NCBI GenBank assembly: GCA_951406725.2
Contig: OX597821.1
Location: 992,001 to 1,056,000, forward strand
Origin: Octopus vulgaris
Taxonomy: Eukaryota
Reading direction: 5' to 3'
Length of the DNA: 64,000 nt
A program made the position numbers and the translations under genes. Positions 43,102 through 57,512 of the stretch are shown piece by piece. Below the pieces are notes generated by a model. It had not been told where the DNA came from. It ran no database searches and was given only the letters and a program-made list of their open reading frames with translations. Numbering within the stretch: position 1 is the first letter of the stretch; the number at the start of each line of letters is the position of its first letter.

Positions 43102-43361
43102 GTCTTTGCAGCTTTATTAATGAAGTGTATATATATATATATATATATATATATATATATATATATATATATATATATATATATATATATATATACACAC
43201 TTCATTAATAAAGCTGCACAGACATCGCAGAAACTGTTACTCAGAGTTTCACTTTCCCGTTCGTTATATGTGTAAGAATACATACAACCTTATTTCCGAC
43301 GAAAGGGAACGGAGAAACTCTGAGTAACAGTTTTTGTGGTGTCTTTGCTGCTTTGTTAATA
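43102..43361. mobile_element. Fold-back remnant (probable Penelope-type terminal sequence) with degenerate hammerhead motifs in both orientations
   Basis: 43102-43128 is inverted to about 43197-43223, and 43203-43263 is inverted to 43299-43361. CCGACGA..GAAACTCTGAGTA lies at 43296-43326. Confidence 0.55.
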
Positions 43362-43508
43362 AGGCATATTACTCTATCTCCGGTATTCGAGTACTATTTT
43401 TTGCACCTTGTTTCACATTTATGTATACCCCGGTATACACACACACACACACACACATGTATATATATATATATATATATATATATATATATATATATAT
43501 ATATATAT

Positions 43509-43605
43509 TATAGTGGGGTAGGTTTATGGGGATTACGACGTAAGGCTAAACCCCTTATGAACAAGAAATCCAGGGTAACCCCATAAACCGGCTTACCCCA
43601 CTATA
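43509..43605. mobile_element. 97-bp hairpin / MITE-like element
   Basis: TATAGTGGGGTA-GGTTTATGGGG pairs with CCCCATAAACC-(GGCT bulge)-TACCCCACTATA; TA at both ends. Confidence 0.55.
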
Positions 43606-44057
43606 CTATTAACGGTACAACATCCTAGAGTGTGCTTCTCTTCCGGATTCATGTATTTCTACAAACAAACAATCCTATATATATTCAAATATTCGATATT
43701 GTTTATATATATATATACTTGCGTGTGTGTGTGTATTTGTGCATTTATTTATGTGTAAGTACGTACCCCGGGATGAAACTTCTGTTGACCACGATGTATT
43801 GAACCTCACGATAGTTCCAATCTGTCTTTTCTCAATAAACCTACTGAGTTCTTTCAATGTCTGAGACAGCATTATGCAGTCCAGTAGTCCAGTTTAATTA
43901 CACCTACAAGCGCGCCTGCGTGCACTCATAGAGATAAAGCCATAATATGCACACTCTTTTGTTCTAATCACTGGACAGCAGCCATTCTCTCTATATATAT
44001 GTATATACTTGCGTATGTGTGTACGTACATAAATACATTATATATACACAAATATAT

Positions 44058-44393
44058 GGGCGTGGGAGTGGCTGTGTGGTAAGTAGCTTGCTTACCAAAT
44101 ACATTGTTCCGGGTTCAGTCCCACTGCGTGGTACCTTGGGCAAGTGTCTTCTATTATAGTCTTGGGCTGACCAAAGCATTGTGAGTGGATTTGGTAGACA
44201 GAAACTGAAAGAAGCCCGTCGTATATATGTATATGTGTGTGTGTGTGTGTATTTGTGTGTCTGTGTTTGTCACCCCAACATCGCTTCACAATCGATGTAC
44301 AAGACTTCCAAAGAATAAGACCTAGGGTCGATTTGCTCTAGCATGGCCGCAGTCAAATGACTAAAACAAGTAAAAGATTAAAAGAGTAAAGAG
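44058..44393 (+). mobile_element. SINE family A with internal deletions
   Basis: Head, body and (AAAAGAGT)n tail present. Confidence 0.88.
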
Positions 44394-45303
44394 TATTATC
44401 TATGCATACATATAACATCTACACATGTATATATATATATATATATACTATATACTATATATATATATATGTATATATATACTCTCTCTCTCTCTCTATA
44501 TATATATATATATATATATATATATATAGGCACTCGCACATATTTGTATACATACAAAAGTACCTAGATACCTAGATACACAGGTACGAACACATTGCTT
44601 CATACATACATAAATACATACATACATACATACATACATACATCCACAAACATACATACATACATACATACATACATACATACATACATACATACATACA
44701 TACATACATACATCCACAAACATAAACCGGGCTGCTTTTATACATTTTATATTTTTTGGCAGATTTGCTATTTGTCTTTGAGTGAAGATGTAGATAGATA
44801 GAGGTTGTTGACATCTTGTGTGGAGTGAGAGAGTAGAGGAATGGTCTAAAGGAGGAATAGCGCTAACCAGAACATCGGAAGGATCACAGAGGCAGCAGAC
44901 AGATAGCGCTGCCAGAGTCTCCTATGTGTATGATTCTATGTGTGTTTGCATGCATGTATGCATGTATGTATGCATGTATGTATGCATCTATGTATGTATG
45001 CATGTGTGTATGTATGTATGTATGTATGTATTTATGTATTTATGCATGTATGCACGGTTGTATGTATACATGCATGTGTGTATATATATTTTATGTATAT
45101 ATGTATGTGTTATGTATGTATGTATGTATGTATGTATGTATCTGTGTCTGTACGTAGATAGATACTTACACTGGCATATTTACACAGATACATATACCCA
45201 TGGAGCATAAATATACATGCATACATATGTATACACACACACACATACAAACACACACGTAGATCCATCCATGCACTACGCAAAGACGCACATACATGTT
45301 TAT

Positions 45304-45382
45304 TGTGTGAGTGTGTGTGAGTGTGTGTGAGTGTGTGTGAGTGTGTGTGAGTGTGTGTGAGTGTGTGTGAGTGTGTGTGAGT
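45304..45382. repeat. (GTGTGTGA)n octamer repeat
   Basis: Direct reading, about 9-10 units. Confidence 0.9.
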
Positions 45383-55260: not shown

Positions 55261-55870
55261 ATCAGAAATATTAAATTTCTAAATGTCTCAAAGAGACATG
55301 AGCGGTGGTGGAACGATAGAGTGGTTGTATACTGTCACCCTAACGTGACAGTCCCGTAAAGGGAATTACACCACCGCTGTTTAGCCCTAGGAAGCATCGA
55401 ACGCTTCCTGTCGGCCTTGACACATGGTCTGTGTCCTTATATTTGTGAAGGGGAGGCAAGCACCCCTAACAGCCAAGATTCACACCTGAGGACATGCATG
55501 TTTCTGGGTCTTAACCCGTCATCAGCCCAGGATAGTGAGATCTGCTGACTGAGGTGCCATACGAGAGTGTCACGTTAAGTTGACAGTATACAACCACTCT
55601 ATCGCTCCACCACCGCTCATGTCTCTTTGAGACATTTAGAAATTTAATATTTCTGATTACGGTGACCAGTGAATAGATTTCACTGTAAATATATATATAT
55701 TTGTGAAGGCTAGACAGGCACCTCAACCAGCAGATTTCACTATCCTGGGCTTGCCTCCCCTTCACAAATATAAGGACATAGAAAATGAGTCAAAGCCGAC
55801 AGGAAGCGTTCGATGCTTCCTAGGGCTAAACAGCGGTGGTGTCACGTTAAGTGACAGTATACAACCACTC
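55261..55870. mobile_element. Non-coding fold-back element built from inverted copies of a hammerhead-bearing module
   Basis: Inverted pairs: 55261-55350 with 55568-55657; 55368-55461 with about 55749-55842; 55525-55558 with 55717-55750. Confidence 0.75.
55476..55543 (-). ncRNA. Type I hammerhead ribozyme
   Basis: Minus strand: agatctcac-tat-cctggg-CTGATGA-c-gggt(taag)accc-a-GAAA-catgcat-GTC-ctcagg-t-gtgaatct. 6-bp stem I plus extension, palindromic CATGCATG stem III; the stem II closing pair is a C-A mismatch. Confidence 0.8.
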
Positions 55871-55954
55871 TCTCTCTCTCTCTCTCTCTCTCTCTCTCTC
55901 TCTCTCTCTATATATATATATATATATATATATATATATATATATATATATATA

Positions 55955-56293
55955 AATTAGTAAAAAAACACCTTTTATCAATTCAAAATGAACAATTAAA
56001 TTATACCATCTTGAAAATTACATATAATAGAAATATTAAAATTAAAATAACAATAAAATATGAATAATTATGTAAATTGTAAAAAGAATAATAAAAGCGT
56101 ATATAATAGGTACCTATTATTATTTTTTATTATTTTTTATTATTATTATTTTATTTTATTTTTTTGCAATTTACTTAATTACTGATATTTTATTGTTATT
56201 TTAATTTTGATATTTCTATCATATGTAATTTTCTAGATGGTGTAATTTAATTGTTCATTTTGAATTGATAAAAGGTATTTTTTTCTAATAATT
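55955..56293. repeat. ~340-bp AT-rich imperfect palindrome centred on ATAATAGGTACCTATTAT
   Basis: CCTTTTATCAATTCAAAATGAACAATTAAATTATACCATC is mirrored by GATGGTGTAATTTAATTGTTCATTTTGAATTGATAAAAGG. Confidence 0.9.
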
Positions 56294-56540
56294 ATTTATA
56301 TATTATATTGTGTGAAATTTGATTTAGTATTTCTAAATTGAATTTTTTTCCCCTGTAAGTTTGGATTAATATTCCTTCAAATAATTATTATCTATCTATC
56401 TATCTATCTATCTATCTATCTATCTATCTATCTATCTATCTATCTATCTATCTATCTATATATATATATATCTATCTATCTATATATATATATATATATA
56501 TATATATATATATATATATATATATATATATATAAAACAA

Positions 56541-56823
56541 TAATCTTTTGATGGAATTTATAAACATTTAATGCATCGCTACACGAATCTCGACAAAACT
56601 CGTTTAACATTCATGCTGGTAAAATGGTATATTAATGTTACATCTGTCGTACATCAATGTTATGTCGCCTGAAGAAATGAATCCATTAAGATCAATCCGA
56701 TGCTCACGGATACCACAGATTGCACTGTAATCATCCCAGGAATACGGGCCGTGATCTTAAGAGACATGCGGTTTGTGGAAAAGCGATGCATTAAATGTTT
56801 ATTAATTCCATCCAAAGATTATT
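56541..56823. repeat. 40-bp inverted repeats enclosing ~200 bp
   Basis: TAATCTTTTGATGGAATTTATAAACATTTAATGCATCGCT versus AGCGATGCATTAAATGTTTATTAATTCCATCCAAAGATTA. Confidence 0.8.
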
Positions 56824-57409
56824 ATTATTGTTATTTTTACATTTATCCTACATTATATCGGTACAGCTCGATGCGACCCCGAAAAACTGGTTCACCAGTC
56901 AGCATCATTAGACTGTGGCCAGCCTAATAGAATAAGAGCTTTATTTGCATATTCAAGACGTTTCCCATACCCTCATATATATATATATATATATATATAT
57001 ATATATATAAACGCACACACTCCTATAAGGCGGACCCCACAAGATTAACCGTCTCCCCCAATACATATCCCTTCACATAAATTGTAGCCTCCACACATGC
57101 ATAGATCCTTCCATTGCACACATTACACACCACACGCTAACATAACCGCTCACGACGACTTTTTCCTTTACAGAAAGAAAACAAACCAACAAACACAGCT
57201 ATATATACTTACACCCCAGAAAAAATTATACATATGACCCCGATGCGCATACCACATACCTCTTATCACATCCCCATCCCCACAGGAGTACCACTTTAAT
57301 AATACACACTTTTCCCCATTCCAAGATAATTCTTGCCGTCTTCACAGCATACCCAACCAAGGGAAATAACTCCTAAACTAATCTGGCACTTTTTGTCGCC
57401 GGATTCCCT

Positions 57410-57512
57410 TCCATATCGGCTAACTCTGATGAGCGTAAAGTTACATAATCGGACTGTGACCTAACACTCCATTGTATTCTTTACGCGAAACCGTAAGACC
57501 AGCCGTGATGGA
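57410..57512 (+). ncRNA. Extended type I hammerhead ribozyme
   Basis: tccat-at-cggct-aa-ct-CTGATGA(57426-32)-gcgtaaag..ctttacgc-GAAA(57487-90)-cc-GTA-ag-acc-agccg-tg-atgga: intact core, perfect 8-bp stem II, stem I with internal loops. Confidence 0.85.

Follow-up and report, generated by a model that had tools for sequence, protein, structure and literature searches.

Hammerhead Ribozyme Motifs in a 64-kb Stretch of the Octopus vulgaris Genome: Probable Remnants of Penelope-like Elements and Retrozymes

We analysed a 64,000-nt stretch of the Octopus vulgaris genome (2.8 Gb; assembly GCA_951406725.2, contig OX597821.1, C8:992001-1056000), hereafter the window, in which six hammerhead ribozyme cores lie close together. 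With a probability that we put at about 0.85, they represent six independent insertions of six dispersed repeat families with likely self-cleaving RNA, i.e., four 3' ends of Penelope-like elements (PLEs) and two retrozymes carried by PLEs. Under this explanation, four of the families (A, B, D and F) would be 5'-truncated 3' ends of PLEs, one Neptune-type and three Hydra-clade, while the other two (C and E) would be non-LTR retrozymes (LTR: long terminal repeat), non-coding units of 330-354 bp arranged head to tail and likely copied and inserted by the reverse transcriptase (RT) and endonuclease of PLEs.

Hammerhead Cores in the Window

Type I hammerheads were called with a descriptor combining the core, a stem I of at least 2, a stem II of at least 4 and a closed stem III. 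It returned exactly four motifs in the window, with cores at 52444 (+), 53212 (+), 55525 (-) and 57426 (+), which exceeds shuffled sequence, a comparison proposed by an initial annotation of the window (mean 0.075 motifs, maximum 1, over 200 block-wise local dinucleotide shuffles, of which 0/200 reach 4). In all four, CYGANGA, GAAA and NUH are joined by stems I-III and the ends lie in stem I, which defines a type I hammerhead. Two further CYGANGA cores are broken: at 43296 (+), the 5' strand of stem I and a portion of stem II are missing, and at 48218 (+) about 6 nt are gone from the 5' strand of stem I, which no longer closes. Compared to their relatives, the core at 53212 carries a G10.1-to-A change and the motif at 57426 a 5-nt deletion in stem III. 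The initial annotation had announced five or six hammerheads within 14 kb; the six cores are there, none more than about 15 nt from the place given, and the one at 43296 is decayed as it had stated, but the complete motifs number four rather than five by the descriptor, the one given as full at 48213 (core 48218) being broken. The four palindromic or near-palindromic stems III that it named are present. Finally, 24 other CYGANGA cores in the window were checked by BLAST, and none proved to derive from a hammerhead of a known family.

Each core was assigned to a family (A = 52444, B = 53212, C = 55525, D = 57426, E = 48218, F = 43296; Table 1). At first look, DNA searches of the genome yielded 2,438 candidates for A, 2,755 for B, 1,886 for C, 1,387 for D, 20 for E and 1,177 for F, from which the best 30 loci per family (20 for E) were examined, out of up to 2,755 candidates. 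The copies of A, B, C, D and F fall into separate sequence clusters, as expected from the claim that the families are unrelated (E, without a passing copy, was left out of the clustering). Their 3' ends are fixed and their 5' truncation is variable; the announced insertion near (TA)n also stands, since most 3' ends fall within or next to (TA)n or other simple repeats. The descriptor was passed by 27/30 copies of A, 12/30 of B, 19/30 of C, 7/30 of D and 0/20 of E, as well as by 7/30 copies of F in a separate test, which indicates that most older copies are decaying.

Table 1. Coordinates of the hammerhead-bearing remnants and associated features in the window (positions counted from its first letter).
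Feature	Position	Strand	Description
First coding exon of a presumed CELF-type RNA-binding gene	38730..39015	-	RRM_1, E=3.5e-07; hammerheads 4-18 kb upstream
Family F remnant	43179..43432	+	Core 43296; stem III ACTC-T-GAGT; putative Hydra-clade PLE 3' end
Family E remnant	48151..48419	+	Old retrozyme-like unit (~330 bp); broken hammerhead, core 48218
3' part of putative Neptune-type PLE open reading frame	49915..50647	+	Encodes CSRSRCNTC linker and GIY-YIG endonuclease; interrupted by one stop
CA-rich 3' region and pseudo-LTR of the same element	50648..52572	+	
Family A minimal hammerhead	52440..52474	+	GTTT CCGACGA A GAGC-TCC-GCTC GAA ACGT T AAAC; predicted cut after 52470
Family B remnant	53152..53337	+	Core 53212; 77-nt stem II domain; stem III ACAATTGT; predicted cut after 53307; putative Hydra-clade PLE 3' end
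Family C insertion	55261..55878	.	354-bp non-coding unit, minus (55548-55261), joined to inverted plus copy (55557-55878)
Family C canonical-type hammerhead	55476..55538	-	Core CTGATGA at 55525; stem III ACATGCATGT; predicted cut after 55491
Family D remnant	57003..57540	+	Core 57426; 54-nt stem II domain; stem III shortened to ACCGT; predicted cut after 57495; putative Hydra-clade PLE 3' end

Families A, B, D and F: Ends of Penelope-like Elements

The initial annotation regarded the motifs as type I hammerheads of the Penelope/retrozyme kind belonging to several families, which is borne out, and called these families non-autonomous. Taken literally for all six, this last statement is extremely improbable: it agrees with the absence of any open reading frame (ORF) inside the window for 5/6 motifs, but PLE ORFs lie collinearly upstream in longer copies of A, B, D and F. 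Non-autonomy thus fits C and E, which are retrozyme-like, and not the other four, which look like truncated 3' ends of protein-coding PLEs.

Long copies of B and D extend 1.2-1.7 kb upstream into ORF remnants, featuring a CSCRDKSKC linker in B, and a CSCRGNTTC linker, CRLC (CxxC) and CPH/CLH (CxH) in D. For F, two upstream walks led to collinear Hydra-like ORF remnants about 1.3 kb from the motif, with a decayed linker, CNLC and CRH. The features that define the Hydra clade according to Craig et al. 2021 (PMC8557442; consulted in part, as were the other papers cited below), namely a CxCx5C linker, CxxC and CxH but no CCHH, are therefore found in B, D and F, which, as judged from sequence, are 3' ends of Hydra-clade PLEs. 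In the window, the F remnant includes an inverted partial copy (43264-43179, minus strand), and in the fold of this family the AAAACTGT/ACAGTTTT stem I is intact in 7/30 copies.

An intact Hydra-clade PLE is also present in the genome as many near-identical copies, with a 717-aa ORF, RWK and DKT motifs, the CxCx5C linker, a pseudo-LTR and a hammerhead, and it agrees by eye with Hydra-1_Obim from the supplement of PMC8557442. Young intact copies, at C9:56.36 Mb and C8:30.17 Mb, have an inverted partner and a 67-nt one-sided extension. The 717-aa ORF has no Pfam match, and a protein search with it returned 1,032 matches, the 120 listed being all unnamed. RWK and DKT were thus seen in this related intact element (40% to D, 25% to B), and no fetched copy of B, D or F reaches the RT start.

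Regarding family A, the GIY-YIG fragment upstream of the hammerhead, which had gone unmentioned in the initial annotation, matches the GIY-YIG profile at E=0.0027, below the cut-off. An ORF search returned 14,156 candidates, with sister ORFs of 884-1,009 aa, and the ORF, the 3' region and the hammerhead are collinear in 4/6 fetched copies of A. An intact sister occurs as 6.2-kb tandems (ORFs of 883-898 aa), with a core identical to that of A, an ADKGG motif and an RT match (RVT_1, E=0.0006) below the cut-off. Combining the window with this sister, all the features of Neptune elements are found (RT and C-terminal GIY-YIG, CX2-5CxxC linker, DKG, hammerhead in the pseudo-LTR, tandems), and we assign family A to the Neptune-type PLEs, a clade call that rests on motifs. 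The core CCGACGA is conserved in 27/27 passing copies.

At C10:97.805-97.825 Mb, a tandem comprises three or more almost identical Neptune-type PLEs of 6.2 kb, whose CA-rich 3' regions are long, and this family looks recently active. Moreover, many A copies, including the one at 52369-52572 in the window, are about 205 bp long and start at a common TGTGACC site after (TA)n, perhaps due to 5' truncation at TA-like microhomology and partly to search bias.

Families C and E: Retrozyme-like Units

Family C is a head-to-tail unit of 354 bp: the sequence downstream of the motif recurs upstream with a period of 350-354 in 11/30 loci, and a sister subfamily has a period of 353-355 bp in 12/25 loci. 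Its longest ATG-started frame is 29 aa, its guanine-cytosine (GC) content is 44%, and, folded as a circle, it reaches z -9.1 relative to 100 shuffles. The hammerhead has a 6-bp stem I with a TAT/T internal loop and a distal helix, and its stem II starts from a mismatched C.A pair. In the window, the C copy has one core, the inverted plus copy (55557-55878) having its hammerhead deleted, with the long end of the insertion at 55261 and the short end at 55878; one C locus of the 30 (L088) has a second, altered core at a distance of 354 nt from the first.

Covariation was studied on 48 copies (42 distinct), corresponding to 44 of the 55 loci of C and its sister plus four distant relatives, after leaving out loci without the anchor motif, duplicates and truncated copies. 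Across this superfamily, both partners vary in 10/16 named pairs, and 92% of cells are paired, a level that 0/500 shuffles reach, while pairing drops to 16-50% in a control with slid structures. The copies being related, this covariation is support, not a probability.

Family E, represented by 20 candidates at 68-87%, shows a head-to-tail period of 314-351 bp in 7/20 loci; its commonest pair is standard at 12/12 positions, and its commonest letters give the same hammerhead design as C. Both C and E are retrozyme-like. A second retrozyme, of 359 bp, was recovered from the genome sample described below, with 2,361 candidates and copies 97-100% alike. It forms arrays of 2-5 units, such as the one at C1:20.002-20.005 Mb (L241:2100-4770; five direct and two inverted units), and it has a canonical hammerhead (GAGG-CAATA-CCTC, stem III ACCGGT) and a circular fold with z -5.2.

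Such units might have been satellites that arose from the end of a PLE and expanded locally through unequal crossing over, without retrotransposition of units, a route discussed by Li, Clavereau and Pollet 2026 (bioRxiv 10.64898/2026.07.22.740005) and one that the head-to-tail arrays of up to five units bring to mind. We nevertheless hold this origin of C and E to be very unlikely, given that copies of C and of the young retrozyme are scattered over many chromosomes, mostly as one or two units, and that each insertion is truncated at a variable point on the 5' side, carries an inverted copy and has its two 3' ends at fixed places in (TA)n, a combination that recombination would not produce time after time.

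Further relatives of C (L184, L190, L210, L240 and L350) have a common body with different hammerheads, which suggests a radiation of retrozyme subfamilies. In assembled contigs, depth is far higher on the C body than on the C hammerhead. In the window, the C insertion lies about 10 bp from the right end of a Tc1-type transposon (53635-55251) that has terminal inverted repeats in TA and a 267-aa open stretch (HTH_Tnp_Tc3_2, E=3.9e-18).

Insertion Footprint

A link between retrozymes and PLEs is seen at the ends of their insertions. In inverted C insertions, the outer ends lie about 173 and about 229 nt after the cleavage site, i.e., one is 56 nt longer, in 13/13 loci (12 distinct insertions), and the same pattern of one short and one long end recurs in 6/7 resolved loci of the C sister. 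All of the inverted insertions of the young 359-bp retrozyme (7/7, among 15 loci) likewise end at 178-181 and 223-228 (+47 nt). Among Hydra-clade families, the two ends are at 47 and 111 in D (10/11 loci; 8/9 distinct), at about 40 and 115 in F (19 loci), and in clusters at 54-59 (15/30) and 123-131 (5/30) in B, while the young Hydra element shows an extension of +67 nt. By comparison, the Neptune-type family A has a single end (101-104) in 30/30 loci, and a test with a repeat-trimmed reference revealed no inverted partner in these 30 loci; inverted matches that a looser test had found upstream in 5/30 A loci all vanished with that reference.

Inverted pseudo-LTRs with a one-sided tail are ascribed to the PLE endonuclease in PMC8557442, and are said there not to be seen in non-LTR target-primed reverse transcription. 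Since the retrozyme insertions bear this PLE-type footprint, their insertion by PLE machinery is well supported.

A parasitism of octopus-type retrozymes on Hydra-clade PLEs is a tentative proposal, for which the odds are somewhat below even. In its favour, retrozymes resemble the Hydra families in their inverted two-ended footprint (extensions of 47-56 nt vs. 64-72 nt) and their long palindromic stem III, whereas the Neptune family differs from them by its single end and 4-nt stem III. It is weakened by the comparison of one Neptune with four Hydra families, by the unequal extension lengths and by the lack of common sequence, the retrozyme units having no likeness to the young Hydra element beyond TA runs. 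A GIY-YIG ORF upstream of one C copy was considered as the parent PLE and rejected, as it belongs to a separate element. If the proposal is right, the young retrozyme (97-100% alike) and the intact 717-aa Hydra ORFs would form a live pair for testing retrozyme movement, and insertions would offer direct evidence on a matter for which published work has had co-occurrence and sequence likeness to go on.

Possible Mechanism and Role of the Hammerheads

Within a transcript of tandem units, a pair of hammerheads would associate by way of their palindromic stems III, cutting the RNA to unit length. The unit RNA, possibly ligated into a circle, would then be reverse-transcribed into more-than-unit cDNA, which the GIY-YIG endonuclease would insert at a nicked (TA)n target. 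The steps of cleavage, circularisation, reverse transcription and insertion are drawn from PMC4209133, PMC7229834 and PMC6765202, as well as from folding predictions. In B, C and D, dimers are predicted to be more stable than two separate monomers by 10-17 kcal/mol (for C just the difference is valid), and, according to fold prediction, the A monomer cannot close stem III alone. Because they are single and have no tandem partner, the copies in the window are likely inert relics.

Alternatively, the hammerheads might be passengers with little or no cleavage in vivo, the units moving as linear transcripts without circles. We regard this possibility as unlikely, yet not to be neglected. PLE hammerheads cleave poorly in vitro (PMC4209133), 8/9 frog retrozyme dimers failed to cleave (bioRxiv 10.64898/2026.07.22.740005) and Naiads spread without hammerheads (PMC8557442), while in our families the basal pair of stem II is mismatched in C and E, and core position 4 is often a C in A, B and F. 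Against mere passengers, compensatory changes are found across the C sister subfamilies, the 33 nt of the hammerhead are identical between family A and its Neptune sister family in a surrounding region just 68% alike, and about 30 families in 1.8 Mb retain the fold, mostly with a palindromic stem III; moreover, mussel and axolotl retrozymes of equal size do cleave and circularise (PMC7229834). We retain self-cleavage as the likely property of these families.

Genomic Density and the CELF-Type Gene

To put the cluster in context, sixty evenly spaced 10-kb stretches (600 kb) were sampled from the genome. The descriptor gave 20 hits in 9 stretches, which by grouping represent 10 independent insertions (one doubtful), against 0-2 hits in 10 shuffles. 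This density, about one hammerhead insertion per 60 kb, corresponds to about 47,000 genome-wide (22,000-86,000). Accordingly, at least four insertions in 14.2 kb have a P of about 1e-4 per tile, i.e., about 21 tiles per genome (1-209). Four more hammerheads are found in the 120 kb beside the window, and the 1.8 Mb of fetched loci contain 174 modules forming about 33 sequence clusters (a few doubtful), most of which have a palindromic stem III. Regarding clumping, 12-14 insertions of other families were counted in 455 kb of flanks vs. 9-10 in 600 kb (P 0.15-0.27), after dropping one same-family hit and the second member of every inverted pair; the lower count further leaves out two doubtful hits. 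The (TA)n density between 42.7 and 57.6 kb is ordinary. Hence, the closeness of the motifs likely reflects the upper tail of a genome-wide density rather than a special locus; the excess is real, yet of a size that a whole-genome scan would meet.

The cluster lies upstream of a gene that we take to be of the CELF type. As the initial annotation had stated, the part of its intron in the window (1-38.7 kb) contains no hammerhead on either strand, by the descriptor or by BLAST with the 174 modules. Its suggestion that this reflects selection against self-cleaving RNA does not follow: 0.65 insertions are expected there, of which 0.32 in sense orientation, the antisense strand is devoid of hammerheads as well, and zero has a probability of 0.52 (0.27 if scaled by TA tracts), which makes the empty intron uninformative on selection. 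A search with short motifs did not place the next CELF exon within 50 kb further on, which leaves one plus-strand hammerhead in these 50 kb in an uncertain context.

A stronger version of this idea would have the cluster selected as a regulatory device upstream of the gene (e.g., cutting read-through transcripts) and hammerheads purged from the intron. The rarity of four complete motifs in 5 kb speaks for it, as does an intron without hammerheads despite a (TA)n density twice that of the sample, and intron depletion has been reported in Xenopus (bioRxiv 10.64898/2026.07.22.740005). Still, this scenario appears most improbable, for two of the motifs are incomplete and another two show damage relative to their families, the copies in the window differ in age and orientation, and zero in the intron is about as expected as not, both strands being alike.

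Points Against the Interpretation

Several observations weigh against the explanation by six insertions of PLE ends and PLE-carried retrozymes. First, Rfam 15, a search that the initial annotation had recommended, yields no hammerhead match in the window at the gathering score, nor is there a hammerhead among the 150 listed of 527 matches at E<=1, and short stretches around 55525 and 52444 gave none either; the Rfam model is insensitive here, as a textbook-looking hammerhead elsewhere in the genome reaches just 12.3 bits vs. a cut-off of 34. Second, when isolated strands are folded, 4/6 motifs are no better than shuffles, D alone standing out (z -4.47; z -1 for B). Third, examining the best 20 to 30 loci favours young, long copies. 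Fourth, stem covariation across copies, which had been put forward as a check by the initial annotation, was obtained for the C superfamily but does not rise above shuffles in E. Fifth, no autonomous PLE with sequence in common with C was found. Sixth, assembled contigs cover the C unit in three runs guessed to be RNA and in one unclassed run, and give neither ends, strand nor level; the head-to-tail joint is present in the unclassed, DNA-like run as well as in the RNA-guessed ones, and contigs cannot separate a circle from a genomic tandem. Finally, four insertions in 5 kb are rare under a Poisson model (about 1 tile per genome; 0.1-11), and some local clumping is left unexplained.

Relation to Known Systems

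PLE hammerheads, retrozymes, their link to PLEs, intron depletion and one Octopus Hydra hammerhead are already in print. Cervera and De la Pena 2014 (PMC4209133) described the minimal hammerheads of PLEs (min-HHR), which lie in pseudo-LTRs, number thousands per genome, act as dimers and have low activity. The core of family A, CCGACGA, departs from the CUGANGA consensus of that paper, and cephalopods are not named in the text parts and supplement files of it that were searched. The initial annotation had thought such families probably uncatalogued for cephalopods, which is in part wrong, as the supplement of PMC8557442 lists Hydra-1_Obim of Octopus bimaculoides with a hammerhead. Like the Hydra PLEs of that paper, B, D and F have a CxCx5C-type linker, CxxC and CxH near the end of the endonuclease, (TA)n targets and a hammerhead near the 3' end, which in the published octopus copy has a 9-nt near-palindromic stem III. 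They differ from that octopus hammerhead in their sequence and, for B and D, in stem II domains of 77 and 54 nt; moreover, the end extension of the Hydra families here is 64-72 nt vs. the 30-40 bp quoted for PLEs.

Animal non-LTR retrozymes, including mussel units of 350-390 bp, were described by Cervera and De la Pena 2020 (PMC7229834), who named PLEs as likely drivers, and they are argued to be non-autonomous PLE derivatives, enriched in intergenic regions of Xenopus, in bioRxiv 10.64898/2026.07.22.740005, the invertebrates of which are three insects and one anthozoan. C and E share with them the head-to-tail units of 330-354 bp, non-coding in C and presumably so in E, the GC content of 44%, the canonical-type type I hammerhead, the highly paired circular fold and the proposed dependence on PLEs. 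In contrast, they occur mostly as one or two units instead of long arrays, and have a 10-nt palindromic stem III and an inverted two-ended footprint. The words "inverted", "target site" and "microsatellite" are absent from the main text of PMC7229834, and no description of an inverted two-ended footprint for retrozymes was found in the text parts of this paper and of bioRxiv 10.64898/2026.07.22.740005. Our literature search found no paper on octopus retrozymes, which the supplement of PMC7229834, other papers or repeat databases may hold.

With tens of thousands of such motifs expected in the genome, the locus itself matters little. The sample adds uncatalogued octopus-type families, among which are two Hydra hammerheads with an extended stem II domain, along with three or more families of retrozymes. 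The footprint ties retrozymes to PLE enzymes by their manner of landing, not by co-occurrence, and points to the young retrozyme and the intact Hydra element as partners that could be paired in a retrotransposition assay.

Other Repeats in the Window

The F remnant adjoins the end of another dispersed repeat (42953-43107, plus strand), featuring GAAAC followed by a CTGAAGA hairpin; a type I hammerhead would need its core halves in the opposite order, and, by eye, its stems fail to close as type II. Lastly, a weak tRNA-like match (29.6 bits) at 1813-1881 (+) is probably the head of a short interspersed nuclear element.

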